A DNA stretch of 63,978 nt, the filler included, from Conidiobolus incongruus B7586 (Eukaryota), in NCBI GenBank assembly GCA_000697335.1. It is 15 parts of 15 records of this genome, joined end to end, with 100 filler letters (N's around TTAATTAATTAA, not from the genome) between each part and the next. Parts side by side here need not be neighbours in the genome. Positions count along the whole stretch, not along the records: positions 3,111 to 4,534 come from JNEM01005670.1; positions 4,635 to 6,162 come from JNEM01005675.1; positions 6,263 to 11,954 come from JNEM01005676.1; positions 12,055 to 13,976 come from JNEM01005680.1; positions 14,077 to 16,514 come from JNEM01005681.1; positions 16,615 to 18,230 come from JNEM01005688.1; positions 18,331 to 20,175 come from JNEM01005694.1; positions 20,276 to 28,715 come from JNEM01005695.1; 7 more parts are not named here. The stretch is one strand, 5' to 3'. The translations under genes and the position numbers were made by a program. Shown piece after piece: positions 3,111 to 49,520 of the stretch. Positions within the stretch are counted from its first letter, which is position 1. Every line of letters begins with the position of its first letter. Below the pieces are notes generated by a model, which saw nothing but the letters and a program-made list of their open reading frames with translations, was not told the origin of the DNA and searched no databases.

Positions 3111-4455
3111 TATTATATATAATATTTTATATTATACTAAATTTTTTCTATTAGTATTATTATACTTAAATCCCTTTTTAAAAAAATTTACTTATATATC
3201 AATTAACTTTATAAAAAAGGTAAATCAACTTATGATATTATTAGAATTACTAGTGTTAGTTACTTTACTATAGTTAAAGTTATTAAAAATAACAATAAAA
3301 AAACATTTAAATTTAAATTTAAATATATTAAAATTATAAATAAATATAATAAGAAGTATATTTATAGGTTAGTTAATATAATCAAATATAATACTATTAT
3401 AAAAATACAACAAGAATTATAAAACAATATAACAAAATTAGTTAATACTAATATTATTATATATATTTTATATTAATATAGATATTACTTATATCTTAAT
3501 AAAAAACACTTTTAATTAAAAAAATCTTATTATAAAGTTAGATAAAAGTTTAAATATCACTATTAATATTAAACTAAAACTAATTAAATATAATGCTATT
3601 TAATTTAATAAAAATAAAATTATATTTTAATAAATTTAATAAAAAAACTAGATATTTTAAAAAAATATACAATTACTTTATAACTATCAAATTAATTTTA
3701 TTTAATAGTATAATTGTAAGTTAATTATTATTTAAAGATATATATTGTTTTTAAATATAAGATTTCTTTATAAAGTTAATAAAAGAATTAATACTAAAAT
3801 ATATTAAAATATTCTAAATAATAAATTAAAAAAAGACTATTAAATAATATAAATTAAAACAATCTGATGTTATTTTCTAATAAAATAATGTTTTTTGTTA
3901 TACTATAGCTTTTACTACTAAATAACTTAAAAATAACAAGATAATAAATATAAAGTAGTTTCTTTAATCTTTTAACTTTAATCTAATTAAATACCTTTAA
4001 AATTAGTTAAAAAAAGCTATTAAAGCTTTTCCCCTAATAAAAATTTTAAATAAACTTTAAAAATATATATAAGTAATATAAAACAAGATTAACTTTTTTT
4101 AATATAATAAGTTATTTGATTTTATACCTTACAAACTTAAGAAAGTTAGAAAAGTTAAAGATAAATACCCTAGGTTTTAATTTTTTTTATCACCAAAAAC
4201 CTATAAATTTATAACTTACCCTAAGTAAAATTTAAAGATTTATATTTTAACCAATTAATAACTAAATATTATGATTTAATGATATATATAATGAATAAAT
4301 ATAATAGATTTTGAATATTTAATTTAGATTTATTTTATTAAATATTAATCAAGTTATTAGTAAAAATATAAGTGTTTTTGATTTTATAACTTACTTTTAT
4401 AGGTTAATATATAAATGTTTTTAATTTTATAATTTATTTTTATAGGTTAGTATAT
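3111..4455 (+). mobile_element. Tc1-family DD34E transposon, degenerate copy (5' end lost in gap)
   Basis: Colinear with 18656-20175 and 47948-49520. Ends in the family terminal repeat (ttttataacttacttttataggttaata), present twice in tandem. Confidence 0.85.
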
Positions 4456-4634
4456 ATATTTATTTTATAATTATAGTATAAGTTATGTTAATTAAATATT
4501 AATAAATTCTCTATTAAATTATATATAATTAAATNNNNNNNNNNNNNNNNNNNNNNNNNNNNNNNNNNNNNNNNNNNNTTAATTAATTAANNNNNNNNNN
4601 NNNNNNNNNNNNNNNNNNNNNNNNNNNNNNNNNN

Positions 4635-5627
4635 ATTAGGTAAATTATTTTAAAACTAGAAGAAAAATTATCTAATATTTATTAAAATTTAAAAAACTAA
4701 TTTTAACTATGATTTTTTTGATTCTTAATAGAGAAAAAAAAATATTGAAAGATATCTTGTTATTTTAGCTAGAGAATTATCTAAGCATTTTAATACTAAT
4801 CTTATAAATATATTAAATATATTTGAATTTAAACTTAAATTAATAAATAAAAACCCAAAATAGGTACCTTATAATTTAACTAAAATTTAAAAAAAAACTA
4901 AAATAGCTATTATTAAACAAAACTTATTTAAGTATTACCAGAAACCTAAGATTTTAAAACAAATATTCAAAATTAATGAATATTAAATCCTTTTGTATAA
5001 TTCTTTACTAAAATACAAATCAAAATATAAGATTAAGCTAAATCAACCCCTTTTATAAATCTTTTTAAATAATATTTTATTAATAAGTGAATATTAAATA
5101 ATACAATGAATTATAATAATTTATATTACTTTTATTTAGTTTCTAAAAAAAATCAATTAATAATAAGCTTTATACTGCTTTTTTAAATAAAAGTATTTTT
5201 AATTAATATTTTCTATTAAATTTGAAAAAACCTATTATTTTATATAATAATTCAAATTATATAAATTTAAAGTTGCAAAAAAATCTTCTAATAAAAAATA
5301 ACTAAAAAAACTACCATATTTAATATACTCTTTAAATTATAACTTATATAACTATAATTGTTTTTGGTAATTAAAAAACTAACTTATATGAAAAAATATT
5401 TTTACAAGAAAATTAAATTAATTTGTAAAATATCAAATTCAGTCTTTAACAAAAAGAATTATATTATAAATATTAAAAGTTTACCTAAAATATAGCAAAA
5501 AGTTATTAATAATCAAAGGAACTCTTAAATTTATATTATTTATTTATTTTTATATATTATATATCAAGATATTTATTTATTTTTGATTAAAAAAAAATTT
5601 CAAATTTTCAAAATATAAGGTAATAAT
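4635..5627 (+). mobile_element. mariner DD34D transposon, degenerate partial copy
   Basis: Colinear with 9230-10222: 'taggtaccttataat' (WVPH-like), 'ctaccatatttaatatactct' (PHPPYSPD-like), right end 'aaaatataaggtaata'. Confidence 0.85.
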
Positions 5628-6869
5628 AAATTAATATAAATAACAGAAGTTTTTGAAAAATTAAAATTTTTTTATATTTAATGATAAATTTTTATTTAAT
5701 TTTAATACAAATTTTTCAATTTATTAATAAAATTAGAATTTTTTAATAAACTATTAATTTAATTATTATATACAGTCAAAAACTAAAAAAATAAATTAAT
5801 TATAATTAAATAATCATCAATAATATAATTTAATTTTTAAATTATATTTATATTCAAAACAGTTAATAAAATACAAAATAATTAATTATATAATATGTAT
5901 TAAAATAATTAAACCAAAATTAATATAAATAATTTAGTAAATTATAATTTATTATAAAAAATTAATTAATATTAATATATAATATATAATAATTAAAAAT
6001 ATGATGAATATAATATATAATAATAAAATATCAAATAATATATTATTAAATATTTAGTTTATTTATTAGAATATATTTAAAATATTAAATAAATCTAAAA
6101 CAATAATTAAATATAGTTTTTTGGTTAGATAATAATAGCATCATTTATATAAATTTAATTTANNNNNNNNNNNNNNNNNNNNNNNNNNNNNNNNNNNNNN
6201 NNNNNNTTAATTAATTAANNNNNNNNNNNNNNNNNNNNNNNNNNNNNNNNNNNNNNNNNNNNAAAATATATTTTCCAATTTAAAATATATTTTTGATAAA
6301 ATATAATTATTTACTATATTTATCAATTCTTATAATTATATATAAAGTTCTATAAACAAGTTTATATATATCTATAGAAATTATTAAATTAGTGTTTTTG
6401 ATTTATATTTTAATATTTACATTTAAATTAATAAACTAAAGAAGTTTTCAATAAATATTACGGAATAAAAAAACTAATTAAATAATATTAGTTAATTAGT
6501 TTATAATATAGTAGTTCTAATATTTAATATTATATTAGAAATTATAATTAAACTTTTAACCTACTAGCAAAACTCTATTAAAAATAAAGTTGTTGAAACT
6601 TATAAATAACTTAAGGATAATTTTCTACTCAGATTATAGACTAATGTTTTTTTATTAGCTATCAAAAATGTTTATTAAAATATTTTATTAAAGTATTTTA
6701 AAAATATAACAAAATTAAAAAGTAGTGTAATAATTACTTATTAAGAATAATATAATAATTAATTTCTTTCTTTATATCCAATTTAAAAAATTTTTTAGAT
6801 ATATTTAAATATCAATTAATAATTATATTAATTATTTAAAAGGTATTTATAAATTCATTTTCCAATTAT

Positions 6870-8700: not shown

Positions 8701-8908
8701 AAAAAGATACCAAGAAAATATAATTAAAATTAATCCAATATCAATCATTTATTTATATTTATATAAATATTAGATATTCTTTTAAGGAAAAAAAAAATAA
8801 AATATCAAAATATAAAAACTAAATTTTTGATAAAAAGAAAATTGTAATCTTTTGATATTATTACAATAATTATGTTATATTTTTATATTACAAACTCCTT
8901 AATATAAA

Positions 8909-10222
8909 TATAATCTTGAATTTAAAATAATGGGAAATCTTTTAATTTCTAATTTTTCATACATATTATTAATTTGAAATAAATTAATATATACAAAATT
9001 AATAGGGAATTATATATTTTTAAAATATATATATATAATATTTTTTTTGATTAAAAAATTAACTTTTTAAATTTGGTTGTTTAATTTAATCATGCTTAAA
9101 CTAAATAGTGATCATCAAAAGTTTTTTATTTCAGTATTAGTAAAACTTAACCATAAACCCTCTAAAATTATTTAAAATTTACAAGCAACTTTTAGTAATG
9201 AAGTATTATCTGAATCAACAATTTATTGCTAGGTAAATTGCTTAAAGGCTAAGAGAAAAACTATCCTAAACTTGCCAAAATCTAAAAGTTTAACTTTAAT
9301 TGTTATATTTTCAATTATTAATAAAATGAAAAAATAAATTGAAAAATATCTTTTTATTTCAGCTAGAGAATTATGTAAACACTTTAATATTAGTCTTATA
9401 AGTATTTTATATATATTAAAGTTTAAACTCAAATTAATAAATAAAAATGTAAAATGGGTACCTTATAATATAACTAAAGCTTAGAAAGAAGCTAAAGTAG
9501 TTATTACTAAACAGAACTTACTAAAATATTACCAGAAGCCTAGATTATTACAATGAATAATTACTATTGATGAATCTTAGATCCCTATGTATAATCTTTT
9601 ACCAAAACAAAAATTAAAATGCTGGATTAAACAAAATCAACCCCCTGTACAAATCCCTTTAAATAAGCAATTTATTAATAAGTGAATGTTAACTATTATA
9701 ATAGATTATAATGATATATGCTATTTTTATTTAGTTCTTATAGGAAAATCAATTAATAGTAAACTTTATATTGCTTTATTAAATAAAAGTATCTCAAATT
9801 GGTTTTCTTAATATAATTAGAGAAGACCTATTATTTTGCATAAAAATTGCAAAATATATAAATCTAAAGCTATAAAAAACTTTGTAATTAAAAATAACTG
9901 GAAAGAACTACCACATCTGATATACTCCTTAGATTATAACCCATGTGATTATAATTACTTTGGATAATTAAAAAATTAGCTTATAGGAAAGAAAATTTTT
10001 GCAAAAAAATTTAATTACTTTGTGAAACATCAAATTGCAGTTATTAATAAAAAATACTATTTTTTAGGTATTAGAACTTTGCCAAAAATATAGCAAACAG
10101 TAGTTAATAATAAAAGAAACTATTAAATTTATATTATATATTTATTTTTATATATTATATATTAAAATATTTATTTATTTTGAATTGCAGAAAAATCCCA
10201 TTATTTAAAATATAGAGTAATA
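8909..10222 (+). mobile_element. Full-length (~1.31 kb) mariner DD34D transposon; transposase frame 9092-10126 with 12 internal stops
   Basis: TIRs ta-taatcttgaatttaaaataatggga / tcccattatttaaaatatagagtaa-ta. Motifs KWVPY, IITIDES*, IILHKN, PHLIYSLDYNPCDY. 34 residues between the 2nd and 3rd catalytic positions. 344 codons, no net frameshift. Confidence 0.92.
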
Positions 10223-10899
10223 TTATTGAATTTTTTATTTTATAAGTAATAAATATATATAATTTAAAAAATTATAAATTTGCTAAAATCATTGTTTTTG
10301 AATGACCTAAAATAGAAAAAAAGATAAAAAAAACCTTTATAAATATAAAATCATTAAAGATATTTATTATTGATAAAATTTTAAAATAATTATATTTTAT
10401 TTAAAAAAATAAATAAATGTAAATATAAATGAATTTTATCATAATTAATAAGGTAAGTATTAAAAACATTTATTCTCTAATATTATTTCTAAACCAATTA
10501 AATTAATTTTAACAAATAGTTATTTCTTTAATTTTTAATCATTTCCTTAGTTATTATTAGATTAAAAAAAGAAAGATAAATATAAAACTATTTTCAGTAT
10601 TATATAGTTGATATTAATATAACTAACTTTTATTTAACCTAATTAATATCTTAATATTTTTTTATTTATTTATTAATAATATCTTTTATTGATATATTAA
10701 ATATATATAATTATTTAATAAAATAATATTTTTAACTTATTAAAATAATCAAAATATATTTAACTTATTTAAAAAAAATATTTATTTTATTATAATATTC
10801 TAAAATATATAATAATATAAAAAAATATTCTTTTAGTCTCTATTAAATTTATTAATTAAGTTATTATATTTTTAAAAAAATAATTAAATCTAGAAGATT

Positions 10900-12094: not shown

Positions 12095-13650
12095 AATATA
12101 ATAATTTCCAAAAATAAATTATAAAATCAAAAACACTTATATTTTTACTAATAACTTAATATTAATTAAAATAAACCTAAATTAAATAATTCAAATCAAT
12201 TATATTTATTAAAAATATATAATTTTATATTAACAATTAGTTATTAATTTGTTAAAATATAAACCTTTAAATTTTAATTAACATAAGTTATAAATTTAAA
12301 GGTTTATAATAATGAAAAAAATTATAACCTAGTGTTTCTATCTTTGGTTTTTTAACTTTTCGAAATTTATAGGGTATAGAATAAATTAACTTCTTATACT
12401 AAAAAAGTTTAATCTTGTTTTATATTTCTTAACTTTATTTTTAAATCTATAAATTTTTTATTATAATAAAGCTTAAATATCCTTTTTAACTGTTCCTAAG
12501 AGTATATAATTAAGTTAAAGTTAGGATATTAAAGAAGTTTTTTATAACTATTATTTTGTTATTTTTTAATTTATTTGATAATAATAACTAAAATATAACA
12601 ACATGTATTATCTTATTAGAAAATAATATTAGATTTGTTTAACTTAATATTATTTAATAGTTTATTCAATTTATTATTTAAAATATTTTAATATAACCTA
12701 GCATAAATTCCAATATTAATTTTAAAAAAAATACCCTACATTAAAATATAAAATATATATTTAAATAATAATTAACCTATTATTATACTTTTGGTTAAAA
12801 TTACCATAATAGTTGCTAATTCATTTTATATATTTTTTTAAATCATTTAACTTTTTTATTAAATTTATTAAAGTATATTTTTAATATATTAAATTAAATA
12901 ACTTTAATTAATTTTAATATAATATTATTTGCAAAATTGAAACTCCCACCCAGCTTTATAATAAAGTTTCTTTAGTTGTGGGTGTTTTTTCTTAAGGTAT
13001 AAGTGGTATCTATTCTAATATAAAGCATATATAATAGTATTAGAATTAACTAATATTCTTAAATAGTCTTATAGTTTTTGTTGGATTTTTATAATAATAC
13101 TCTATTTGCTTATATTAATTTACCTACTGATATATTACTTAATATATTTATTTATTATGCTAATATACTTAAGTTTAAATTTAAATGTATTTTTATAGAT
13201 ATTCTTAATATCCTTAATTATATTAAACTAGCAAACATTAGAGATTCTAAAAATATCATGAGTTGATTTAACTTTTTAATTAAGTTAATTAATATACAAG
13301 TGTGTTTTTTTAGAGAGGGATTTTAGTATAATGATATTAAAATAAAATTTAATATAATTATAAAATATCATATAAAATAATAATAAAGAAAAATAAGATA
13401 TGGCTATATATTATTAAAAACATCCTTTTATCTCAAAAACCTACAAATTTATTACTTATTTTGATTAAACAATATAAGTTAATATTATTGCTAATAATTT
13501 ACTAAATATATCTAAATCAATTTATATATTATCAAATAATATATTTTAATTATGAATTAAAGTTTCGAATAATCTGATATTTATACCTATTTTAGTTATT
13601 AATTAATATTTATAAATTTGATTTTATGACTTATTTTTATAGATTAATAA
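12095..13650 (-). mobile_element. Tc1-family DD34E transposon, near full-length degenerate copy
   Basis: Reverse complement aligns with the + copies; terminal 'attttatgacttatttttatagattaata' at ~13621-13650. Confidence 0.85.
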
Positions 13651-14199
13651 ATATATTTTGAAAAAATATCTATTAATAAATTAAATAGAAAAATAAATAT
13701 CATTAAACTATGTATATTATATAGATATTTATATATTAAATTTTAATTTTTATATATATTAAAATTGAATAAACTAAAAACTTTTAGTTAGATTTAATTA
13801 TAATTAAATTTTATTATAATTTTTAACAAGTTTAATTTTATATTTTTTAAAACTTAATTATTAATTATATAAAAATATCTAAGCTTTTCAAATATCTTAT
13901 AAAGTTAATATATTTTTTAAAACTATTGTATTTTATTAGATATTTGATTTTATTGCAAAAAGGATATTATTCAAAANNNNNNNNNNNNNNNNNNNNNNNN
14001 NNNNNNNNNNNNNNNNNNNNTTAATTAATTAANNNNNNNNNNNNNNNNNNNNNNNNNNNNNNNNNNNNNNNNNNNNTATTTATAAATAATATGCTTATTT
14101 ATCTAATTTTATATAATACATTATTTTAACATAATATTTTATTAAGTTAAAAATTAATTTGAAAATTAAAGTTCATTAATAGTTTAAATTTAATAAAAT

Positions 14200-14790
14200 A
14201 ACCTCCATTTTTGTTTATATTTTAGTAAATATAGTGTAGCTTTAGTTATTCTAATATTTTTATTATTAATTTCATTAATCTAATTAAGTTTAAATATTAA
14301 TTTATAAAATATACTTATATATTTAATTTTAAATCAGCTTTATAATTATTTAATTAAAATCAAAAATTAGTTTTAAAGATATATTTTATATTATAAATTA
14401 AAGAAAAAATAATAATTAAAATTAATACTTTATATTTAGATAAATTTTAAATAATATCCCTTTTAGCTTTAAATTGACAAATTTAGGAATAATTGTTGGT
14501 TTTAAAAAATAAATCATCTTTATAAATTATTTACAAAATTTAAATGCTTTGTAAAAGTTTAAGGTTAAGCTTTAATATTATTAAAATAAAAGTCTTTTGA
14601 TGATTAATATCAAATTAAAATATAATTAGAATTAATTTTAAATTCTTAAATAAAAGTAATTTAGTGAAAATAATAATTTAATATATATAATTAGAAAATA
14701 CTAATTGTTTCATATATTTTGTATATATTATATTTTTTAATACTAATAATATATTTAAAAAATCAGAAATTAAAAAATTTAGTATTTGTA
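14200..14790 (-). mobile_element. mariner 5' half, strongly degenerate
   Basis: Reverse complement matches 8930-9500 ('aaaatcagaaattaaaaa', 'aaataaaagtcttttgatgatt'). Confidence 0.6.
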
Positions 14791-16624: not shown

Positions 16625-18192
16625 TATATTAACTTATAAAAGTGAGTTATAAAATAAAAACATTTATATTTTTACCAATAACTTGATTAATATTTAATAA
16701 AATAAACTTAAATTAAATAATTAAAATCTATTATATTTATTAATAATATATATCATTAAATGATAATATTTAGTTATTAATTAGTTAAAATATAAACCTT
16801 TAAATTTTACTTAAGATGAGTTATAAATTTGTAGGTTTTTGGTGATAAAAAAATTAAAACCTAATATATCTACCTATAATTTTTCTAATTTCTTTAAGTT
16901 TATAAGGTATAGAATCAATTAACTTTTTATACTAAAAAGGGTTAATTTTATTCTATACTTCTTAAATATATTCTTAAAGCTAATTTAAAACTTTAATTAA
17001 GGGAAAACTTTAATAGCTTTTTTTAACTAATTCTAAAAGTATTTAATTAGGTTAAAATTAAAAAATTAAAAAAGCTATTTTATAACTATTATCTTGTTAT
17101 TTTTAAGCTATTTGGTAGTAAAGGTTATAATATAACAAAAGGTATTATTTTGTTAGAAAATAATATTAAATTTGCTTAACCTATATTATTCAATTGTTTT
17201 TTTAATTTATTATTTAAAATACTTTAGTATATTTTAATATTAATTCCCTTATTAACTTTATAAAAATAGCTTATACATAAAGATAATATATATCCTTAAA
17301 TAATAATTAACTTATTATTATATTTCTAGATAAAATTAACATAATAGTTATAAAATAATTCTATATCATTTCTAAAGTATCTAGTTTTTTTATTAATTCT
17401 ATTAAAATATATTTTTGTTTTATTAAATTAAATAACTTTACTCTAATTAATTCTAGTTTAATATTAATAATAACATTTAAACTCTTGTTTAGTTTTATAA
17501 TAGGATTTCTTTAATTAAAGATGTTTTTTCTTAAAGTGTAAGTAGTATCTATATTAATATAAAGTATATATAATATTATTAGTGTTAACTAATATTATTG
17601 TATAGTTTTATAGTTTCTGTTATATTTCTATAATAGTATTATATTTGCTTATTCTAATTAACCTATAGATATACTTCTTATTATATTTATTTATGATTTT
17701 AACACATTTAAGTTTAAGTTTAAATATGTTTTTATTGTTATTCTTAATAACTTTAACTATAGTAAATTAACTAACACTAATAATTCTAGCAATATTATAA
17801 GTTGATATATTTTTTGATAAAGTTAATTAATATATAAATAGATATTTTAAAGAGGGATTTAGGTATAATAATATTAATAAAAAAAATTTAGTATATTTAT
17901 AAAATATTATATAAAATAATAACAAAGAGAGAAAAAAGATATGGTTATATATTGTTAAATATATCCCCTTATCTCAAAAACATTAATTTATAGCTTATCT
18001 TAGTTAAATATTAAGAGTTAATATTTTTGCTAATAATTTACTAAATATATCTAAATATATTTATTTATTATCAAATAATATACCTTAATTATATATTATA
18101 GCTTTAAGTAATTTAATATATATAATTATTTTATTTATTAATTAAAATATATATATTTTTGATTTTATAACTCACTTTTGTGAGTTAGTATA
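16625..18192 (-). mobile_element. Tc1-family DD34E transposon, full-length (~1.57 kb) degenerate copy with both TIRs
   Basis: Left tatattaacttataaaagtgagttataaaat and right attttataactcacttttgtgagttagtata are inverted repeats flanked by TA. Confidence 0.9.
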
Positions 18193-18330: not shown

Positions 18331-18640
18331 TTATATATATTTTTATATAATTTTATTAATTATATAGATAATATTGAATTTTCTAATAATTAAGTTTTTT
18401 TCTCTCATAATTTTTATTATCTTTTATCTTTTATATTATTTATAAAATTGAAACTATATTTTATTAATATTTTAGTATATTGGTATTATCTAATATAAAT
18501 CTTAATACATCAATGACTTATCTCAATTTGAAGCTTAATTAAACTTTGTTTATATTTACACACTATATTCTATACTACCTTAATATATTTTATGCTATAC
18601 TATTTTTATAACTAATTTCTTTTATATTTTATTAGATTAA
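18331..18640 (+). repeat. Second copy of the putative Gypsy LTR
   Basis: Alignable by eye to ~2690-2960. Confidence 0.55.
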
Positions 18641-18655
18641 TTATTTTTATACTTA

Positions 18656-20175
18656 TATACTAACTTATAAAAATAAGTTATAAAATTAAAAATATATATA
18701 TTTTAATTAATAACTAAAATAACTATATATATTAAATTACTTAAAATTATAATATATAACAAGATATATTATTTAATAATAAATAAATATATTTAGATAT
18801 ATTTAGTAAATTATTAGCATAAATATTAACCTTTAATATTTAATTAAGGTAAGTTATAAATTTAAAGGTTTTTAAGATAAAGGAATATATTTAATAATAT
18901 ATAACTATATTTTGTTGATCTTTTTATTATTATTATATAGTATTTTACAAATATTTTAAATTGTTTTTATTAATATTATTATATTTAAATCCTTGTTTAA
19001 AAAATTTTAATTATGTATTAATCAATTTTATAAAAAAAATAAATCAACTTATAATATTATTAGAATTACTAGTATTAACTAGTTTATTATAGTTAAGTTT
19101 TTAAGAATAATAATAAAGATATATTTAAACTTAAACTTAAGTATATTAAAATTATAAATAATCATGATAAGAAGTGTATTTATAGGTTAGTTAATATAAG
19201 TAAATATGATATTATTATTAAAATACAATAGGAATTATAAAACTATATAAGAATATTAATTAATACTAATATTATTATATATACTTTATATTAATATAGA
19301 TACCACTTATACCTTAAAAAAACACCCCTAATTAAAAAAATCTAATTATAAAGTTAAGTAGAAGTTTAAATATTACCACTATTATTAAATTAAAACTAAT
19401 TAAAGTAAAGTTATTTAGTTTAATAAAATAAAAATATATCTTAATAAATTTAATAAAAATGTTAAATATCTTAAAAAAATATAGAATTACTTTATAACCA
19501 TTATGTTAATTTTACCCTAAAGTATAATAGTAAGTTAATTATTATTTAGGGATATATATTGTTTTTTGATATAAGATATCTTTATAAAGTTAATAAGGGA
19601 ATTAATATTAAGATATACTAGAGTATTCTAAATAATAAATTGAAAAAACTATTGAATAATATAGGTTAAACAAATTTAATATTATTTTTTGACAAGATAA
19701 TACCTCTTGCTATATTATAGCTTTTATTACCAAATAACTTAAAAATAACAAAATAATAGTTATAAAATAATTTTTTTAATGTTTTAATTTTAATTTAATA
19801 AAATATTTTTAGAATTAGTTAAAGAAAGTTATTAAAGCTTTCCCTCTAACAAAAGATTTAAATTAGCTTTAAAAATATATTTAAAAAATATAAAATAAAA
19901 TTAACCCTTTTTAATATAAGTTAATTAACTTTATACCCTATAAACTTAAAAAAGTTAGAGAAGCTAAATATAAATACACTAAGTTTTAATTTTTTTTATC
20001 ACCAAAAACCTATAAATTTATGACTCATTTTAGGTAAAATTTAAAGGTTTATATTTTAACCAATTAATAACTAAATATCATTATTTAATGATTTATAATA
20101 TTAATAAATATATATATAATTTTAAATATTTAATTTAGGTTTATTTTATTAAATATTAATTAAGTTATTAATAAA
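18656..20175 (+). mobile_element. Tc1-family DD34E transposon, degenerate copy
   Basis: Left TIR tatactaacttataaaaataagttataaaat. IIF*QDNTSCY at 19681-19713 (cf. FQQDNAPCH). 34 residues separate this D from the E position, now AAA. Confidence 0.9.
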
Positions 20176-22990: not shown

Positions 22991-24100
22991 TTAGCATTGG
23001 ACTTCGATCTTGGGTTCTTTACCAGAAGCGTCAGCAGCAAAGTTTTGAGTGTAGTATCTACCTTCACCAGAGGATTCACCATATCCAAAGAAATCGTAGT
23101 CTCCAAGTAAGTTATCACGGTGGTATTGAGATTCTTCCCATCCCTTTTGGGCTTCGATGTAGGATTCTTGGCCGTTAGCAATGTTTTCGGCAGCACCTCC
23201 CCATTTGAAACCTTCAGATTCGATACGTTGAGCGAGTTGAGAACCGTTGGAACCATCATGGCTGAGTCTGTCAATGTTCTTCATATCTTGGGAGTGTTGT
23301 TGGGCAGCAACGGCGAGCTTGTCACTCCAGTACAAGGCCTTCTTTCCATGTTGAGCACGGAATTTGTTGACAAGACAGAGACATTTCTTACCGGCATCGG
23401 AGGGAGGAACATTGTTAGTGGGTTGTTCAGGCTTCTTGGGGGGTTGTTCGGGTTCAACAGGCTTGGTAGGGTATTGGGGTTGTTCAGGTTGAGTAGGATA
23501 TTGAGGTTGTTCGGGTTGAGTGGGGTATTGAGGTTGCTGAGGTTCTTCAGGTTTAGTGGGGTAACCGTTACAAACGGGAATGTAACCCTTATTACCTTCA
23601 GCAGCAGAACCCAAAATGACGGAAGCGACACCGTTGTTGTAGCTGCAAGAAATAACATCAAAGTCAGCGCTGAAGAGATGGCTCTTCTTGTCAGCAGAGA
23701 TAGAATCAGCAATAGCGTCTAAGGAAGGGAAACCGGCATAATATTTTTCGGTGTACTTGCTCAACGAGAGGCCAGCTTGTTGGAACTTACCGAAAAGGTC
23801 GGTATCTTGATAACCCTTAGAAGCATATTGAGAAGCAAGGAATTGATTGATGGATTGGAAGTTGTCAACGACAGCAAGAGGCTTAAGGCCCTGTTGGGCA
23901 CGAGCGTCATTGAGTTTACAGACAAAGTATAGATTATCGTAGTTACCGGGTTGGCTGGGCTTGGTAGGGTAACCAGGAGCAGCAGTGGGGTAAGAGGGAG
24001 CAGGAGTAGGGGTGGGAGTGGGCTTGACTACCTGATAATGAGCATCACAGATGCTGATATAGGAGATAATAGCAGAGATGATGAAGTTGGAGAACTGCAT
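22991..24100 (-). CDS. Secreted CAP/SCP protein: degenerate N-terminal CAP domain, Pro/Gln-rich linker, canonical C-terminal CAP domain
   Basis: 369-aa ORF with a signal-like N-terminus. Motifs LVNKFRAQHG, AAQQHSQDM, SHDGSNGS, AAENIANGQ, WEESQYHRDNLL; PQYPTQPEQ repeats. Confidence 0.92.
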   Translation of the reverse strand: MQFSNFIISAIISYISICDAHYQVVKPTPTPTPAPSYPTAAPGYPTKPSQPGNYDNLYFVCKLNDARAQQGLKPLAVVDNFQSINQFLASQYASKGYQDTDLFGKFQQAGLSLSKYTEKYYAGFPSLDAIADSISADKKSHLFSADFDVISCSYNNGVASVILGSAAEGNKGYIPVCNGYPTKPEEPQQPQYPTQPEQPQYPTQPEQPQYPTKPVEPEQPPKKPEQPTNNVPPSDAGKKCLCLVNKFRAQHGKKALYWSDKLAVAAQQHSQDMKNIDRLSHDGSNGSQLAQRIESEGFKWGGAAENIANGQESYIEAQKGWEESQYHRDNLLGDYDFFGYGESSGEGRYYTQNFAADASGKEPKIEVQC

Positions 24101-25587: not shown

Positions 25588-26247
25588 CTACATGGATGCT
25601 GACAATCTTAAATCAAGGGTTATACCACTACAGTTTATTTCGATCTTGGTATCTTTTTTAATCAAATTGAAAGCAAAATTTTGGGTGTAGTATTCGGGAT
25701 TATCGAATTGGGCGAAACCAAAGAATTGGTGGTCACCGAGCATGTTTTTAGAGTGTTCAAAGGACTTGTACCAACTTTTAGTATCTTCTTCATTTGAATC
25801 ACCTTGAGCAATGTTTTCGGCAGCTCCGGACCATGCGAAGTCACGATATTTGATACGATCACCTAAATTCTTTTCGTCTTTGTTAATCCTGTGTACGAGT
25901 ATGTTTGTCTGCGTCATAAGGTCATTTTGATCTTTTGCAGCTAGAGCTAGTTTGTCGCTCCAATAAAATGGTTGCTTATCATGAAGTTGATGTATGGCAT
26001 TGATACGACAGAGATGTATCTTACCAGGATCATCAGGTTTGACTGTGACTTTGTTATCAATAGGGAATTGTGGTTGATTAGTGTCATTGAGATGATTGTG
26101 AATAGATTGGGAACCTTGTTCGTTACTGCCATTGCGATTAATGGGAGTAGATTTGGAGTTCGAAGTGCTATTTTGCCACTGATTGATAGAATCACAGATG
26201 CCAAAGTAAGAGACAATAACAAAGTTGATAATTTGGGAGAATTGCAT
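25588..26247 (-). CDS. Secreted single-domain CAP/SCP protein, paralogue of 22991-24100
   Basis: 219-aa ORF with a similar signal peptide (MQFSQII..). Motifs YWSDKLALAA, GAAENIAQG, YYTQNFA. Confidence 0.88.
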   Translation of the reverse strand: MQFSQIINFVIVSYFGICDSINQWQNSTSNSKSTPINRNGSNEQGSQSIHNHLNDTNQPQFPIDNKVTVKPDDPGKIHLCRINAIHQLHDKQPFYWSDKLALAAKDQNDLMTQTNILVHRINKDEKNLGDRIKYRDFAWSGAAENIAQGDSNEEDTKSWYKSFEHSKNMLGDHQFFGFAQFDNPEYYTQNFAFNLIKKDTKIEINCSGITLDLRLSASM

Positions 26248-40329: not shown

Positions 40330-40824
40330 TATGTAACTTATATTAAAGTGTCTTAATAATTTTTTAACTCAAATAAAAAAATACTTTTTAATATAATTTT
40401 TCACTTTATTAACAATTAAAAAAATAACAGTTGAAATTAATCTTTTAAATTTTAATAAGTTTTAGGTAATTTCTCTTTTAATTTTAAAGTAATTTACCTA
40501 GTAATAAATTATTAATTTAAATAATACTTCATTACTAAAAGTTGCTTATAAATTTTAAATAATTTTAGAGTGTTTGTGGTTAAGTTTTATTGATACTAAA
40601 ATAAAAGACTTTTAATGGTTATTATTTAGTTTAAGCATAATTAAATTAAATAACCAATTTTAAAAAATAAATTTTTTAATCAAAAAAATTATTATATATA
40701 TATATAATTCAAACCTATTTATTTTCCTATTTGTTTTATATATATTTTTTATTTGAAACTAATAATATGTTTGAAAAATCAGAAATTAGAAAATTTCCCA
40801 TTTCTTTAATATTCTATAGTAATA
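40330..40824 (-). mobile_element. mariner 5' portion
   Basis: Reverse complement matches 8909-9400; ends tttcccatttctttaatattctatagtaata. Confidence 0.85.
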
Positions 40825-41646
40825 TTATAATAAATTAATTTTTTAATTCAGTTGATTGATTTTGATTTTATAATTTATACATTCAACATTAATAATACCT
40901 GGTATTGTTTAGTAATTCATTTATAAGCTTCTAATTTGAATTTTATATCATATCAAGCTTTTAAATTTCAATCTATTTTATAATGTGATTATTTTACTAA
41001 ACTATAACAAAAATAAAATTTGATTAAAAATAATAGTAAGTATTATTACCTATCTATTTAAAATATTTTATAATATAAAATTTGGTACTTATAAGGCTTA
41101 ATTAAATAATATTCTTAATATAAAACTTCAACATATACTTAAATCCAAATGGATTTTATCGAATAAAGCTATTGATTATCTATATTAAATAACTACTAAT
41201 CAATGTTTTAACAGTATTTTAAGAGTATAAATTACAGACTAATTTTGTGATATTCGTTATTTAAATAAATTAAAATAATATAAAAATTAAAATCATGGAA
41301 TAAAGAATAAAGTTTAGTTTATTATCCTACCAGCTAAAAGATATGTTATTTAACAAGAACATTTTGTATAGATATAAAAGGCATGATTATTTATACATTA
41401 ACATATATTCATGGAAAAACATGAAAAATTTTAATTTTAATGCATTTGATGAAAAAAAATAATAATGAAAAATTAACTTGATTAGAAGAATCCCATAATT
41501 GTTAATGAATAAAAGTAAATATAAATGGATATTATTAATTGAAACCTAAAAAAATGAATATACTAAATTATATTTCAATAATAATAAATTATAGAATTAA
41601 TTTTTTTTTATTAAACAAGAGCTTAAACTAATAAATAATTTAAATT

Positions 41647-42695
41647 ATGAATTCAATCATTAAAAATTCAATTAATTATAAGTTGGTTAAATTCAACCAA
41701 TCTCAAGTTAATAAAGCTTTAGTATTATTAAACAGTAGCCAATTTTCTACCTCTACTTCTATCCAAAGTAGACAAAATACACACATTAGATTATTCACCC
41801 ATGATTTTGGTGTTTTCGGTAAATATATATTTATTATTTACATTTTTAATTGATATTAATTTATATTAATAGATTCTTTTATCCCTTTAAATCCTAAAGA
41901 TAAACCTTCAATTTTAACTGAACAAGGTCGTAAAATTGCTAAAAAACATTTTAAAAATTTTGTCGCTTCTACTTTTAGGTAGATATATCATTATTATAAT
42001 ATTTTAAAATATTAATTAATTAATTAATTTTTATAGTATAGCAAATATTAAAATGAAATTAAAGGGTTGGAAACCTAAAGTTTTCGCTAACGAAGCTTTA
42101 GATCTTTATTTGGAAATGAATTCTTCTTATGCTAAGTAATTTTATATTTGATTTTTTTTGAAAAAAAAATTAATTATTAATATTAATTTTTTAGGGGAAA
42201 TACTGACGCTATCGATTATTTATGTACTCCCAATTTAGCTGCTGTAACTTATATTTTTATCTAATGCTTAAATCAATGATTTATTAATTTATTTTAATTT
42301 AATAGACTTTGAAGAAAGATATTAAGAATCGTAAGGATAATTTCCAATGGAGCTTTAAAGATGCTGTAGAACCCCCCAGAGTTATTAATGCTAGAATTGG
42401 TCGTATTGCTGATGGCATGACTTTGGCTCAGGTTACTGTTAGATTCCACACTCTTCAGGTAAATATTGATTAATTAGGTATGATACTTATTATACTAATA
42501 ATTTTCTTTAATAAACAGAGTATGGGAGTTTATAACAAATCAGGAAAATTAATTGCTGGTGACCCCGAGAACTTCCAACCCATTATTGAATATTACGTTT
42601 TCCAAAGAATGGTCTCTAAGCCTAAAGACTCTCACTGGCAACTTTATTCTAAGATTTCTCCCCAATCTGTTGAGGAAATTCTTAAAAATAACTAA
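41647..42695 (+). CDS. MBA1: Mitochondrial Tim44-like domain protein mL45/Mba1 (6 exons)
   Basis: GT-AG spliced product with a presequence-like N-terminus and KVFANEALDLYLEMN, LAQVTVRFHTLQ|SMGVYNKSGKLIAGD...IEYYVFQR...HWQL. Confidence 0.85.
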
Positions 42696-44039
42696 TTGAA
42701 TAAAATATTATTTATATTGCAATATTTTTATTATAGTTGTATTTACTACAAAGCAATATCATTATAATTGACAGTTAAATAATCAATTTTGTTCAAAATG
42801 CTATAGAGTTAATATATACCATTAATTGGGTTTAAAATATTATTCTTTATTTCAGATAAAAATGCTGATCTCTAAAAATAGCTTATTATTTAATATGAAT
42901 AGAATTGAAATTTAAAATTTAATTTTAAGTAATAGGTTATGTTTATTAAAATAATGGTTTAACACCCTAATATATTTAAATGAAATGGAGTTAGAATGTT
43001 CTAGATTCATTAAAACTGAAATTTTCAATAAATATTCAATCAAATATATTTGGAAACATCAATTTTCAAATAACAAGTCTGACAAAGAAAAGAGTTCTTG
43101 TATTTTGATGTATTTGAATAAACAAAAAAATTATATCCAGAAATCAGATAATTTCTTTGTTAAAATTTGAGTCTCAGTTTAAGAAATTTTCAAAGTCATT
43201 CATAATAGACATCTATCTAAATTTAACAAGATATATCGTTTCAAAGAAAACTTGTATTGCATATAATCTCAAATCGTTTTTACTAATCATCGATTGAATA
43301 ATATTGATTTTCACAAGTAATACTGGTTGTAATGATACAAATTGATCTGTATAATAATTTAATATAAAAATTCAAAATTAAACCAAGTACAAATTAAAGG
43401 GCATAGTTTACTCAATTCAAATTGGTTCAATTTCTTGGTGAAGATTTAATATTAAATTCCAATATAGTTTTAAGTTTATAAGTATAAAATATCAGCTAGA
43501 AGGTTGTAAGTTGAATTAATACAATTGGTGTATATATCACAAATAAGATTCCTAAAATGGGGCTAAAATAGCTTACTACACTATAAAAATATATTGTAAT
43601 TAGGTGAGTAAAGATATTTGGTGATTAACTAGTAGTTATTAAAATATTCAACTATAAAATTATATATTAGATTTCAAGATAAATGAATAATACCAGCTTA
43701 ATTTTCATCTGGAAATAATTTCATTATTTGAGTGAGGTTTTTCCAATCGAAATAAATAAAAATAAGATATCCTTCGAATTAAATTCTTCTGATAAATCCT
43801 TCTTGAAGGAACCCTGATGCAACTCTTGAAAACATACAATAACTTGAATTTTCATACTTTCAGTTCATACTTAAAATCACATTTCTATGACTCTTCATGT
43901 AAATTTCTTGAAAATTATATATTTAATAAATGATGATCAAATTCATATAATATGCTCTGGGAATAGAATGACCTAATTCGAAAACGAAAGTAATTGGTAT
44001 GGTATCAATTTAAAATGATATCAAATACATGTGACTAAC

Positions 44040-45073
44040 TTAAGAGCGGGAACGGCTAGGGGGTCTTCTATCATCGCGAGTGTAGCTAGGGCTGCGGTGG
44101 CGACGACGATAGTAAGGACTTGGTGAGCGACGACGACGATAATAAGGACTTGGTGAGCGGCGACTATAATAGTGACGAGGACGTCTGTGGCGATGACCCA
44201 TGTATTCTCCAGGGGTAGGGCTGTGAGCACGTTGAGTGAGAGAGTAGTCAACACGAATGATACGGCCATGAAGTTCCTATTTAAAAAGAGTTAGACCATG
44301 AAAATATTTTTATATCATATCAATAAATTATGTACCACTCCGTTAGTTCTTTCCTTAGCAGCGGTGGCTTCTTCAAGAGAGTCAAAAGAAACGAAAGCAA
44401 AACCACGTGATTGGTCAGACTAAAATAATTTAGTGACTTAAAAGCAAAACTTAAAAATATTTCATACCTTCTTATCGTATACTAAAGAAATATCATTTAA
44501 AGTGGAATATCCAGAGAAGAGTTCTTTCAAGTCTCGTTCTCTAGTATTCAAGTTGAGACCAAAAACACCAATAACCTTGGAAGGAGGAGCTGGTTCCTAA
44601 AATAATAGTCAATTATTTGTGAAAAAAAGTCAAAAATAAATAAAAAAGGTATTTACGTTGCGGTGACGGCCGTGAGGACCTTGAGGATGATATCTACCAC
44701 TATGACCACGATCTCTGTAACTGCGACGGGGACTGCGAGAGCGACTAATAAATCAAAAAAAAAGGTTAATTTGTCTTAACATGTATTTTAAAATATCAAA
44801 TACCTTCTATAACGGTCTCTATAATAAGGACTACGACTACGAGAGCGAGAGCGAGGCGAACGAGAACGAGAACGAGAGCGACGATATTGGTCGCGATAAT
44901 AATCGTCTCTTTCTCCTCTTGGGTCTCTTAAGTCTCTTGGGTCTCTATCTCTAGGAGAGGGAGGAAGGTCATCAACGTGCTGAGGTTTTTCAGACTAATT
45001 TAAGGTTAACAAATTAATAAGATTATAGAAATTTATTAAATTTTACTACTTCAGGGTTGCGATCAGACATCAT
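44040..45073 (-). CDS. TRA2: Transformer-2-like SR splicing factor (RS-RRM-RS, 6 coding exons)
   Basis: RSRSRSRSP repeats. RRM PSKVIGVFGLNLNTRERDL..SRGFAFVSF. Tra2 linker IRVDYSLTQRAHSPTPGEYMG; RRSPSPYY x2. Confidence 0.9.
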
Positions 45074-47947
45074 TTCAGACTACTAAAAGATCTAAGTTAA
45101 AAGTCAGTAAAATTATAAAATACAGTTATTTTATAATAATAATAATAATAATAACTAGGAATTAAATTAATAAAAATAGGAAAATTCTTAATTGAATGAA
45201 AAAAAATCTTGGGAATAAGATTGTAGTATTTTAAAAGAAAAAAAATCATGGAAATTTTTGATATTTTCACTGTGATAAATTGCCAAAAATCTGTGCTGTT
45301 TTTCTATAAAAATATCCCATTTAACATTATTGAATACTGTTATAATATTCGAATATGTTTATCATACAGTGTACTTGAACAAAAATTGAGAAATATAATG
45401 TATATTATTTTAATTGTTAATTATCATACCTAATTCAGAATCAAAGTAAAGCAACTACGTTTTAAACTATTTGTCTTAACTTTGTACTAAAATCTCGCAT
45501 TTACCAAATGCTAAATTAAAGGATTTGAAATTTAATAAACTTATGGGAGAATTTTAATTTCACTAAACTTAAATAGGTTTTTATCAATTAATTGAAAATT
45601 TTTAATTATTATTATTGGATGAATTTTGAATATTGTGTCTCAAATTTCAGGAAATTAATAAATTTCAGGATACATTTAAATTAAACAAAGTATTTATTGA
45701 AATTCTAAGATCCAATTAGAGATTTCATATATTCGTAATTTTAAGTTCACCATAATAATTTTAATATGATAGGTTTATGAATTATATATTGAATTTAATT
45801 ATTATCATTATTTGAACGATATTCAATTATTATTATTATTATAGCTGTTAATTTATTTTAAATTGTAAAAATTTATATATGCAAATGATGATTCAATATG
45901 ATTTGATATCCTTACATATTAATTCATAAAGTTTTTACAAAAGCGTATATAATTTATATTTAAGTAAAATTATATTTGTTATATATAATAGTCAAAATAC
46001 AATTATTTTTGTAATTAAATCTGTGCATTTAATTCAACATATATATAAATTCCATAATCAATAACGATGAATATCGCATTGTTCTAAATAACAAATAATG
46101 TGAAATATTAATCCAAAAATAATCTAAAGTTAATTGGATATGTGGTATTTTATACTATTTAGCCTTATATTAGCATATGAATTAGTTTTAAGAGGATGAA
46201 TTTCATATCTAATAATAAATCTAAATACTGTATCCAGGAATATTAATCTTGGAAATACTTTAGAGAACATCAATATTGCTGAATCAAATATTTAATTTTG
46301 ATTTTTTTTAAATATATTCCAAAATTTATATTTACAAGGAAAATGTACATCAATTTGAATAAAACATGTCATTTTAAGCGAGTAAATATATTTATTTCAT
46401 CACTTGATATATGGTATAATGCTATTGAATGAATAAAAATAAATATTTGTATTTTATAATTGTTTTTTACATGAATTTTCCAAATAGATAAATTCCATTT
46501 GAGTGAGAGATAACACATTGATTCACAGTTATTTTTTGGGTTTCGTTTTATGTTAATCAATATGATATATAATTAAACTTAATAATATTTAGTTCATTAA
46601 TACTAATTTTGATACATATGTATTATAAACAAGAAAATATGTTTTAAATTCCATATTTATCAAACTTTACGGAATATGATATACAATCCAATATCTATTT
46701 TAATTATAATAATTATAGATAACACAATATTTATTCCATTTTAACTCTAATTTAGTCTCTTCAAATGAATTTAATGTAAAATAATTTAATTATATCTTTA
46801 TCATATTTCTTTGAAAATCTAGGGTAATAAAATTAATTTTGTACAAAACCTTTAAAAATTTAAATTCAGTAAATAAATTTATTCAAATTAAAATTAAATT
46901 GAATATATAAATATTTTAATAAACAATTGATTTAAAATTGGTATATTTGATATATTTTTAAAATATTTGGTTATTAATCTAAAATTATATATATAATATT
47001 GTTTGATTAGTGATGTTATTTTTTAAAAAGCTATTACATATTTGAAAAAATAATTTATTAATTATTCAAATAAAATCAATCTTATTATAATAAATTGGTT
47101 TTAATATACTAACTAATTACATACTAAAACTGATATTTGAAAAAAATAATATAATTCATATTAATAATTATTAATAAAGTGATATACCATATTTTTGTTT
47201 GCTTAAAATTAATTTTCACATATAAAAATTTGAAATAATTGAAAATAATAATAGTAAAAATTCAAATACAATTATTATTTAAATTATTAATTTATTTGAT
47301 CAATATAAGAAATATATTTTTTTATTTAATTGTTTTCAATGAGAGGTTTTCCAGAATATTGAAATATGTTTTTTAAATAAATTTGATTAAACATTTTATT
47401 TTATTTTATAATTTATTATATTTTAATAGTTTATATTTTATCTCAAATTTAATAAAATAGGAATTTTTATTTAAATATATTATTAATTTCAAAAAAAAAT
47501 ATAAAAAAATAAATAGAAAGAAATAATTTTAAATCATATATATTATTATATATTTTTTATATAAAAATTAATTTTAAAGTTTATTAAATTTAATTAAATT
47601 TGAAGCATTTATTAATTATCAAGGGTCTTATAATTTAATAATAATAAAATTCAACAATATATGTTTTAAAAATAATTACATTTGATAAAAAACTTATTAA
47701 GATAATATTTTATATAAATTAATTNNNNNNNNNNNNNNNNNNNNNNNNNNNNNNNNNNNNNNNNNNNNTTAATTAATTAANNNNNNNNNNNNNNNNNNNN
47801 NNNNNNNNNNNNNNNNNNNNNNNNATTATTAAAGAATTAATTAAGTCATTTATAAAATCATAAAAAATTTTAATTTTATAACTTATTTTTATAAATTAGT
47901 ATATATATATATATATATATATTATGAAAATTATTAGATATAATATA

Positions 47948-49520
47948 TACACTAGCCTATAAAAATAAGTCATAAAATTAAAATTACTTAAATATTTACC
48001 TATATCTTATATAATTCTTAATTAAATAAATTTAAATAACAATATATAGTTTACCTATATTAATTGATTATAACTAACTTTATTTGATTATATTTCATTA
48101 TCTATTGGTTATTATATCAAAACCTAAAATTTAATTAAGGTGAGTTATAAATTTATGGGTTTATAAGTTAAAGGGATATAAATAACAAAATTTATATATA
48201 TCTTTTTTTTCTTTTATTATATTATATATATTATAAAACTATTAAGCTAATATTTTAAAATTAATATTATAATACTTAAATCTTTTTTTAAAAAAGTTCA
48301 CTTATATATTAATCAACTTCATAATGAAAATAAATCAACTTATAAGATTGCTAGAATTATTAGTGTTAGCTAATCTATTAAAGTTAGGGTTATTAAGAAC
48401 AATGCTAAAAAAACACCTAAACTAAAACTTAAGTATATTAAGATTATAGATAAACATGATGAAAAATATTTTTATAGATTAGTTAGTATAAATAAATATA
48501 ATATCATTATAGAAGTATAACCAGAATTACAAAACTATATAAGAATATTAGTTAGTATTAATACTATTATATATGTTTTATATTAAAATAGATACCACTT
48601 ACATCTTAAGAAAAAACACCCCTAATTAAAGAAGTTTTATTATAAAGCTAGGTAAGAGTTTGAATGTCAATACTAAAGTTAAATTGAAACTAACTAGAGT
48701 AAAGTTATTTAGTCTAATAAAATAAATATATATTTTAATAAATTTAATAAAAAAGCTAGATATTTCAAAAAAGATAAAAAACTATTTTATAACCATTATG
48801 TTATTATAACCTAAAAATATAATAATGGGTTAATTATAGTTTGGGGATATATATTATTTTTAGGTATAAGGTATCTTTATAGGGTTGATGGGGGAATTAA
48901 TACTAAAATATACTAAAGTATTCTAAACAATAAATTAAAAAAATTATTAAGTGATATAGATTAAAAAAATCAAATATTATTTTCTAACAAAATAATACAC
49001 CTTGTTATATTATAAACTCAACTATTAAATGATTTAAAAATAACAAAATAACTATTATAAAAAAGCCTCTTTAATCTCCTAATCTTAACCTAATTAAATA
49101 TCTTTAAGATCAACTAAAAAAATCAATTAAAGTTTTTCTCCTAGCAAAAAATTTAAATCAACTTTAAAAGTATATTCAAGAAGCTTAAAATAATATTAAT
49201 TTTGCTTAATATAAGGAACTAGTTGACTTTATGCCTTGTAAACTTAAATAAGTTAGAAAAGCAAAAGATGGATATACTAGATATTAATTTTTCTATCAAT
49301 ACTAAAACCTACAAATTTATTACTTATTTTAAATATACTTTTAATTTTAATATATCAATTATTAATTAATTAAACTTAACTTTATATATTATATTATAAA
49401 TAAAAAATATATATAAATTACATAATTCAATATAAGTTTATTTAAATTAGAATTGATTAAAATATTAAAAGAAATATATATATATATTTAATTTATGACT
49501 CATTTTTCCAAGCTAATATA
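47948..49520 (+). mobile_element. Tc1-family DD34E transposon, full-length and comparatively well-preserved copy
   Basis: TIRs ta-cactagcctataaaaataagtcataaaat / atttatgactcatttttccaagctaata-ta. Frame from 48272 gives STYKIARII, KVI*SNK (KVIWSDE), KYNNGLIIVWG (KHGGG.IMVWG), *SPNLNLIKYL* (QSPDLNPIE.LW). Confidence 0.92.

Follow-up and report, generated by a model that had tools for sequence, protein, structure and literature searches.

Tc1 transposons decayed by context-dependent cytosine loss in a Conidiobolus relative, a likely RIP-like process linked to cytosine methylation

The window, the whole stretch of 63,978 nucleotides that was analysed, consists of 15 contigs with 100-nt spacers between them. 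Five substantial Tc1 copies, two partial copies, a second transposon family and a pair of host genes were located:

3111..4409, plus strand: Tc1 copy without its left arm (contig end); the most depleted, coding GC 12%
12099..13649, minus strand: complete Tc1 copy with numerous small indels; the oldest by A<->T load
16627..18190, minus strand: complete but dead Tc1/DD34E copy of 1564 bp, filling 97% of its contig
18658..20175, plus strand: Tc1 copy, final ~50 bp missing at a contig end
47950..49518, plus strand: complete Tc1 copy from a distinct subfamily; retains most G/C
48272..49287, plus strand: broken transposase frame of the copy at 47950, 223 + 114 codons
32199..32714, plus strand: partial copy of the Tc1 family, left end, truncated by a contig end
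63645..63978, plus strand: partial copy of the Tc1 family, left end, start approximate, truncated by the window end
8899..10225, plus strand: mariner (Mos1-like; Mos1 E = 1.4e-21, PF01359), the least mutated copy of its family
4637-5759, 14255-14780, 39582-40113, 40264-40833 and 62722-63653: further mariner pieces
33762..38693, minus strand: pair of intact alpha-tubulin paralogues with their spacer, serving as control and host marker; CpA undepleted

The Tc1 copies could be aligned over 1.25-1.6 kb at 73-86% identity and represent elements of 1.55-1.57 kb with long IR/DR ends. The initial annotation had counted five near-complete copies; all five are real and three are complete, while those at 18658-20175 and 3111-4409 lose ends at contig ends. 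The four 21-mers it quoted were all found, at 3534, 12937-12957 (reverse strand), 19350 and 48644. Left and right arms were 66-78% alike over ~245 nt, and 14 direct-repeat cores were located at offsets 16, ~191, ~1370 and ~1550; in the copy at 16627..18190, which has TA on either side, cores lie at offsets 16, 1373 and 1547. TA was present at seven of the eight available ends (background frequency 0.19), but since loss of C to T itself creates TA, this evidence for the target site is weaker than it appears. A comparison of 28 flank pairs for sequence shared among copies yielded one clear match, between 2668-2993 and the left flank of the copy at 18658, with two further pairs barely above the shuffle maximum. 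No Pfam match was obtained for the six frames of a repeat at 1497-2657.

The elements belong to Tc1/DD34E, their Tc1 identity having been annotated from the start. Transposase pieces read with X matched Sleeping Beauty 5cr4 (E = 8.8e-10) and the intact homologue P0241 (E = 2.5e-15), a protein of 338 aa encoded in one open frame with HTH_Tnp_Tc3_2 and DDE_3 above cut-off. In the copy at 47950, 223+1+114 codons give a gapless alignment with P0241, with a one-base shortfall near 48941. Its catalytic positions fall at 48716 (D149), 48991 (D241) and 49096 (E276), giving 34 residues between the second D and the E, and D34E was found in 20 of 21 motif-matched homologues. None of the five copies retains the E or the first catalytic D; D241 survives in two. 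As mutated, the copies' protein identity to P0241 is 35-39% and their own DDE_3 match lies below cut-off (E = 0.004). An N-terminal profile had no match in PDB, N-terminal pieces had none in Pfam, and a C-terminal profile gave 0 matches among 7191 candidates in a word-index protein search. Tc1/DD34E elements with long IR/DR ends form the Sleeping Beauty group as described in PMC9777934, whose account agrees with the present elements in length (~1.6 kb), TA flanks, the 34-residue spacing, and arms of ~250 bp that each carry a pair of direct repeats. The transposase matches that of P0241 in its 338 codons; unlike P0241, every copy here is dead.

The host tubulins nest among paralogues of Conidiobolus coronatus (Zoopagomycota, outside Dikarya), and the host is a Conidiobolus relative. 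For a dehydratase-like gene, no close relative with a name was obtained, and exact matching of five host proteins against the protein collection produced no identical entry. Each of the five Tc1 copies occupies 81-97% of its own contig, and because these contigs were joined, the nearness of the copies within the window may be artificial. No host gene was identified on the five Tc1 contigs, which, together with the artificial spacers, would suit small gene-less contigs contributed by an ascomycete capable of RIP that was present in the sample. This source is extremely unlikely, given that mutated mariner pieces lie on the contig of the Conidiobolus-type tubulins (39582-40113) and on one bearing intron-containing genes (40264-40833), and that sequencing runs located via the tubulin region each hold ~17,000 Tc1-family contigs. 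The genome-wide pool comprised four runs made from a single sample, probably the source of the window itself; the copy at 18658..20175 served as reference for its variant table, and its depth shares favour the commonest allele.

Transitions made up 55-80% of pairwise differences, in agreement with the initial annotation. The bias was weaker (ts/tv 1.2-1.8) in pairs that include the copy at 12099 or the one at 47950, these pairs also showing many A<->T changes; for the three closest copies ts/tv was 2.7-3.9. Different copies do retain G/C at different sites, as had been noted: of 1006 ungapped coding columns, 257 were C/T or G/A and only 20 were invariant G/C. The 106 informative transition columns were spread evenly over all 10 copy splits (chi-square p = 0.98), the best tree accounting for 26 of them, and 87 of 92 two-state transversion columns were singletons. 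Such an even spread of retained G/C indicates that the copies mutated separately, and upholds the proposal of independent mutation after insertion. Direction was assessed with 28 full-length homologues, out of 150 listed, at the 60 columns where conservation among them reached 70% or more; there, 128 codons were the same, 139 differed by C>T/G>A only, two by the reverse only and 28 otherwise. G/C loss exceeded A<->T change by 10- to 44-fold, an underestimate. In genome-wide contigs over one copy, 247 transition and 40 transversion places were recorded, and in run X1 all 11 of 11 changes along a 108-nt stretch were transitions. Along none of the five copies was the loss clustered or biased towards one strand (p 0.32-0.94).

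Loss depended strongly on context. The Tc1 copies contain two CpG in 7.6 kb, or 0.06 of expectation, and at ten putative CGN (arginine) positions CpG was kept at none, TAY/TAR predominating there alongside occasional TGT or CAY codons. At homologue-defined codons, CpA was kept in 17 of 140 cases (12%), with 19 of 30 CpA sites lost in every copy; CpC was kept in 81 of 184 (44%), and the mean for CpT, taken across 15 sites, was 0.36; the associated p values were 1e-5 and 1e-3. Standard RIP indices were 1.20/0.56 for Tc1 and 0.89-0.95/1.24-1.33 for three intergenic controls.

The near absence of CpG could have arisen through CpG methylation, spontaneous deamination and AT-biased drift, as in basidiomycete transposons, where a CpG-only signature has been linked to a Masc2-like Dnmt1 according to the part of PMC4352252 concerned; CG hypermutation has likewise been published for "some lower fungi" (Clutterbuck 2017). 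In simulation, this process predicts a surplus of TpG/CpA at 1.07-1.33 of expectation, whereas CpA+TpG stood at 0.55-0.59 in the Tc1 copies (1.05-1.14 in the intergenic controls). Moreover, CpA lacking an adjacent G (Trp, Gln, His, Cys and Met codons) was lost in 88% of cases. CpG deamination is thus already contradicted by the depletion of CpA, and we regard it as very unlikely. In simulations beginning from host genes, which stand in for the ancestor, composition was matched only by CpA-preferring models (best error 2.1), the error rising to 59 when CpA was no faster than CpT.

Untargeted neutral decay under a strong general C>T bias would suit an AT-rich genome in which intergenic GC is 18-21% and A<->T changes and indels occur, most of all in the copies at 12099 and 47950. 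However, copies with 1-2% A<->T change are already below intergenic GC (coding GC 12-15%) and differ from intergenic DNA in CpA and CpG content, while a simulated context-free heavy load leaves CpG at 0.84 and CpA at 1.04 of expectation. At fourfold sites the two tubulins are separated by 42 transitions and 31 transversions, which also speaks against a general bias, and neutral decay is accordingly judged highly improbable. On the scale of the window, genes and three intergenic spacers were spared and both transposon families were hit, mariner showing the same ranking of C loss as Tc1 (CpA 0.27, CpT 0.35, CpC 0.65). The tubulins are 80% alike and bear no mutation signature; the pair is older than the split from C. 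coronatus and so does not constitute a test of homology-triggered RIP.

The initial annotation had read CC>TT doublets as repeated rounds or a relaxed context. CC dinucleotides persisted as CC in 64 cases and became CT in 36, TC in 15 and TT in 20, which supports stepwise decay via CT and TC intermediates; the excess of CT over TC (p = 0.005) indicates that the 3' C tends to mutate first. Retention in the genome-wide pool also varied considerably within one context, the middle G of one TGG being kept at 3% and the G of two TTG-A sites at 77% and 84%. Together with a one-base shift common to four of the five copies, this may mean that masters already carrying damage were amplified.

An intact ancestral transposase, expected from taking G/C at each polymorphic column, could not be rebuilt from the window. 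The reconstruction kept 15 stops in 336 codons, the count falling through 24, 21, 18, 16 and 15 as one to five copies were pooled, and the start ATG reads ATA in all five. Relative to the closest intact homologue, 79 of 337 rebuilt codons differ by C>T/G>A only. By calculation, the chance of missing a site that 3% of copies retain is 86% when five copies are used and 5% when a hundred are. Of the 15 stops that could not be recovered, 14 are also stops in the copy at 47950, even though this copy separated from the others before its coding part had ceased to be conserved (private transversions 2.7% there, 15-18% in the arms). A programmed -1 frameshift was considered for the shared shortfall, but P0241 is encoded in a single open frame and has precisely one residue where the two parts of the broken frame meet. 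An extra A accounts for 20-26% of pool depth at the shared shift, and 12 of 22 indels lie in A/T runs of at least 5; with the open frame of the homologue, these observations make slippage or a defective master likelier than a programmed frameshift.

Taken together, the patterns show that cytosines of the Tc1 copies were turned into thymines separately in each copy once it had inserted, probably through a host pathway in which a cytosine methyltransferase marks repeats; judged from sequence, the mutator is likely RIP-like and methyltransferase-linked. Marked cytosines would be left to deaminate, or be actively deaminated, fastest at CpG and CpA and more slowly at CpT and CpC. Marking may be by a DNMT1/DIM-2-type enzyme, not necessarily RID, by analogy with Zymoseptoria tritici, where mitotic C>T mutation at CpA depends on Dim2 as reported in the section of PMC8016269 concerned. 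Documentation of RID is confined to Pezizomycotina (PMC5751038), and in the zoopagomycete Linderina 5mC has been reported to focus on repeats (PMC11258239). Conversion would have proceeded over many rounds or continuously, taking CpG through TpG/CpA to TpA and CC through CT to TT. Loss did not scale with copy age (Spearman -0.6, p = 0.28, n = 5 copies), the copy at 12099..13649 having changed at 4.3% of invariant A/T sites, and this failure to rise suggests that the process slowed, possibly once targets or copy similarity were exhausted.

RIP in Neurospora crassa and other Pezizomycotina likewise combines directional C:G>T:A change across several repeat families with CpA preference, spared genes, satisfied indices and destroyed transposases. 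It is triggered by homology above ~80% identity. A true equivalent would require premeiotic pairing of homologous copies, here at a zygospore or resting-spore stage, and mutation of both by a RID-like enzyme until identity fell to near 80%. The CpA preference, the indices, the copy identity of 73-86% and the least loss in the oldest copy, as a similarity threshold predicts, are all consistent with this, and methyltransferases with a RID-like domain layout occur in Entomophthorales, Zoophthora radicans scoring 24% on a RIP index (PMC10515909). On the other hand, the host lies outside Dikarya, the strongest target is CpG, hit beyond CpA, and the five copies lack strand-coordinated clusters, although many rounds would erase these. 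C. coronatus and the seven other Zoopagomycota of a 2025 screen were also scored no_rip (PMC12543289, supplement file 12). Canonical RIP is therefore doubtful here, and homology-triggered RIP in Entomophthoromycotina, whether ancestral or independently evolved without RID, is a minority possibility of the same order.

The favoured methyltransferase-linked process has its closest parallel in the Dim2 mutator of Zymoseptoria, which, as described in PMC8016269, causes C>T at CpA only in repeats, does not need sex, and would yield unclustered loss on both strands. That account places >98% of changes at CpA with CpG spared; here CpG goes first and CpT and CpC are eroded too, so that two enzymes or routes may be needed. 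CpG plus CpA are the preferred contexts in transposons of Tuber melanosporum and Aspergillus as presented in PMC4352252, but those are ascomycetes and Tuber has RID and Dim2 homologues. Loss of transposon CpG outside Pezizomycotina is shared with the TpCpG hypermutation of Pucciniomycotina (from the portion of PMC3318451 dealing with it) and with the CG hypermutation of Clutterbuck 2017; in the Tc1 copies CpA is strongly depleted as well.

RIP has been regarded as a trait of Dikarya. The signature described here rests on alignments polarised by intact homologues, affects two transposon families in a relative of Conidiobolus, and includes a component outside CpG that CpG deamination cannot produce; it occurs in a fungal group where a repeat-targeted mutating defence had not previously been established. 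Should the pattern extend across the genome, views would need revision either of how widely RIP is distributed or of how many separate repeat-mutating systems fungi possess, and k-mer screens may overlook such systems in AT-rich genomes. If the process proves to be true RIP in Entomophthoromycotina, repeat-induced mutation would go back as far as terrestrial fungi themselves, and a relative of Conidiobolus that can be cultured would offer a direct test outside Dikarya.

Self-comparison of the window revealed five long copies of a Tc1 element (named here by start position as 3111, 12099, 16627, 18658 and 47950), two partial copies and two further repeat families. The four 21-mers quoted in the initial annotation were located at 3534, 12937-12957 (minus), 19350 and 48644. 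The copies are 73-86% alike over approximately 1,230 shared columns, with ts/tv of 2.7-3.9 when 16627, 18658 and 3111 are compared with one another and 1.2-1.8 for pairs that include 12099 or 47950. Complete copies measure 1551-1569 bp; their arms, 66-78% alike across about 245 nt, each carry one outer and one inner direct repeat, and TA was present at seven of eight available copy ends. With stops read as X, C-terminal pieces matched Sleeping Beauty (E 8.8e-10) and 259 proteins in a representative library, the best being P0241, an intact 338-amino-acid transposase with HTH_Tnp_Tc3_2 and DDE_3 domains. Copy 47950 aligned to P0241 without gaps, its 223 and 114 codons flanking a single missing residue, with a spacing of 34 between the second D and the E. 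This is an ordinary Tc1 element, fitting the Tc1/DD34E description in the available text of PMC9777934. Sequences of this family are plentiful: of the 493,904 contigs in run X1, one of four sequencing runs of one sample, 16,909 fell on one Tc1 copy, a figure that is not a copy number.

The window has a background of 10-14% GC with gene islands of 25-48% GC, and its 15 contigs are separated by 100-nt spacers. Many spacers coincide with transposon ends, so assembly breaks track repeats; as each Tc1 copy occupies 81-97% of its own contig, true clustering of the five is not established by the window.

3011-3110, as at all 14 joins: artificial spacer, in which a 12-nt linker with stops in all frames lies between two stretches of 44 N
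8899-10225, 4637-5759, 14255-14780, 39582-40113, 40264-40833, 47400-47724 and 62722-63653: mariner (Mos1-like) family pieces
1497-2657 and 61733-62849: third repeat pair, 75% alike, poor in CpG and CpA
2668-2993 and 18333-18657: 325-nt repeat, 83% alike

The mariner family is mutated like the Tc1 family, copy 8899 retaining a single frame with about 12 stops at 20% GC. A Pfam search with six frames of one copy of the third repeat pair gave no match. The 325-nt repeat at 18333-18657 ends at TA where Tc1 copy 18658 starts; that at 2668-2993 runs on into unlike sequence just ahead of the spacer preceding copy 3111.

The host genes are as follows.

33762-35102 and 37356-38693 (-): divergent alpha-tubulin genes in tandem, with 84% identity between the proteins
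22991-24100 and 25588-26250 (-): two adjacent CAP-domain genes
51574-52443 (-): dehydratase-like gene
55359-56430 (+): AlkB-type 2OG-Fe(II) oxygenase
57309-58835 (+): Nab2-type CCCH protein
41800-42700 (+): likely Tim44-domain protein, read by eye
44021-45070 (-): likely RS-rich splicing factor, read by eye

In a tree of 18 of 120 listed matches, picked as fungal rows of normal length, both alpha-tubulins were nested among C. coronatus paralogues in a clade with 100/99 support, sharing 86% and 88% identity with the respective nearest paralogue; rows from N. thromboides, Basidiobolus, Dimargaritales and Mucorales fell outside it at 74-76% identity. This placement identifies the host as a Conidiobolus relative in Zoopagomycota other than C. 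coronatus, and a mutated mariner piece lies on the same contig as these Conidiobolus-type tubulins. The tandem genes, each nearest to a different C. coronatus paralogue, represent an expansion of fast-evolving tubulins that is old and specific to the lineage. The CAP-domain products are likely secreted; the first gene (22991-24100) has Pro/Gln-rich repeats ahead of its CAP domain.

The loss of C in these elements is repeat-confined, directional, context-ranked and independent in each copy. At 60 columns conserved to at least 70% in the 28 full-length homologues used, of 150 listed, Tc1 codons were the same in 128 cases, differed by C>T/G>A only in 139, by the reverse in 2 and otherwise in 28. 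Nineteen codons are stops in at least four copies, and the aligned P0241 residue is W or Q in 13 of these and R in 2. Independent mutation of the copies, as initially proposed, was borne out: transversion columns are star-like (87 of 92 singletons) and the 106 informative transition columns are even across all ten copy splits (p 0.98), the best tree accounting for 26. Private transversions of copy 47950 amount to 15-18% of arm sites and 2.7% of coding sites, the latter leaning weakly towards third positions (13 of 26, p 0.06). This copy probably descends from a separate active ancestor, in which case the stops that it shares at 14 of 15 unrecovered stop sites would be repeated hits.

The suggestion that an intact transposase might be rebuilt from these five copies is refuted. 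Reading with G/C priority left 7 + 8 stops across 336 codons, even though the two frame segments were read separately, and none of the five copies retains the start codon, D149 or E276. Beyond the stops, C>T/G>A alone accounts for the difference from P0241 at 79 codons of the rebuild, and the private G/C of single copies includes new T>C changes too. Rare ancestral letters are present elsewhere in the genome, among the genome-wide contigs, so that many more copies could achieve what five cannot.

Sequence context was assessed at homologue-defined sites, which take in positions lost in all copies. Retention was 17/140 for CpA, 81/184 for CpC and a mean of 0.36 for CpT (p 1e-5 and 1e-3). At ten arginine positions, where the homologue suggests ancestral CGN codons, about 42 of 50 codons are TAY/TAR, six are TGT or CAY and none retains CG; CpG would thus have become TpA via intermediates themselves erased. 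Polarising on copy 47950 left the context order unchanged (1.0, 1.74 and 2.24 of 4 kept for CpA, CpT and CpC; p 1.3e-4), and the mariner family gave the same order (CpA 0.27, CpT 0.35 and CpC 0.65 kept). The Tc1 copies hold 2 CpG in a total of 7.6 kb, with CpA+TpG at 0.59 of expectation. As fractions of expectation, CpG and CpA+TpG were 0.41-0.76 and 1.05-1.14 in three intergenic controls, and 0.82 and 1.10 in host genes; simulated neutral, CpG-only and context-free models starting from host ORFs gave CpA+TpG of 1.04-1.33. The best fit in a 288-model grid was about 2-4 hits per site for CpG, 1.5 for CpA, 0.3-0.5 for CpT and 0.1-0.3 for CpC. The fate of CC dinucleotides (CC 64, CT 36, TC 15, TT 20) fits stepwise decay, in keeping with the earlier view of CC>TT doublets as repeated rounds or a relaxed context.

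Several observations complicate this picture. No runs or strand bias of loss were found in any of the five Tc1 copies. Where two other copies retain the site, loss was 35-48% and showed no increase with A<->T age (1.1-4.3%; n=5). In the genome-wide pool, sites of the same dinucleotide differed widely: the middle G of one TGG was kept in 3%, and two TTG-A sites in 77% and 84%. A length difference is also shared between copies.

48941 and 19646 (homologous site): A run shorter by one base in four copies, the separate subfamily included

The longer form at this site makes up 20-26% of genome-wide depth; here and at the preceding sites, depth shares favour the common allele. Amplification of damaged masters, or longer-range context, may contribute to the pattern.

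A cytosine methyltransferase would mark the repeats, the marked bases then becoming T. RIP has an identity threshold of about 80%. Premeiotic RIP of the RID type is an improbable cause of the loss, given that CpG is the leading target here, that no clusters of loss were seen in the five copies and that RID is confined to Pezizomycotina according to the accessible part of PMC5751038. On the same three points a DNMT1/DIM-2-type route is rather the more probable, the more so since excerpts of PMC7862722 and PMC8016269 respectively place Dim-2 in early-diverging fungi and describe mitotic CpA mutation driven by Dim2 in Zymoseptoria. The sequence by itself is compatible with either route.

The literature search found no alignment-level report for Conidiobolus, most matches being judged by listing alone. 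Clutterbuck reportedly described CG hypermutation in 'some lower fungi' in 2017, which may overlap with the Conidiobolus finding. The available portions of PMC3318451, PMC11258239, PMC13297926, PMC12387763, PMC11451569 and 10.1101/2025.06.16.659975 contain no Conidiobolus case. CpA has been linked to RID and CpG-only mutation to Masc2-like enzymes, for Dikarya only, in the text available of PMC4352252, and all 8 Zoopagomycota are classed no_rip in that of PMC12543289. The loss described here is a real feature, and such a mutational history is unusual in the lineage of the host.
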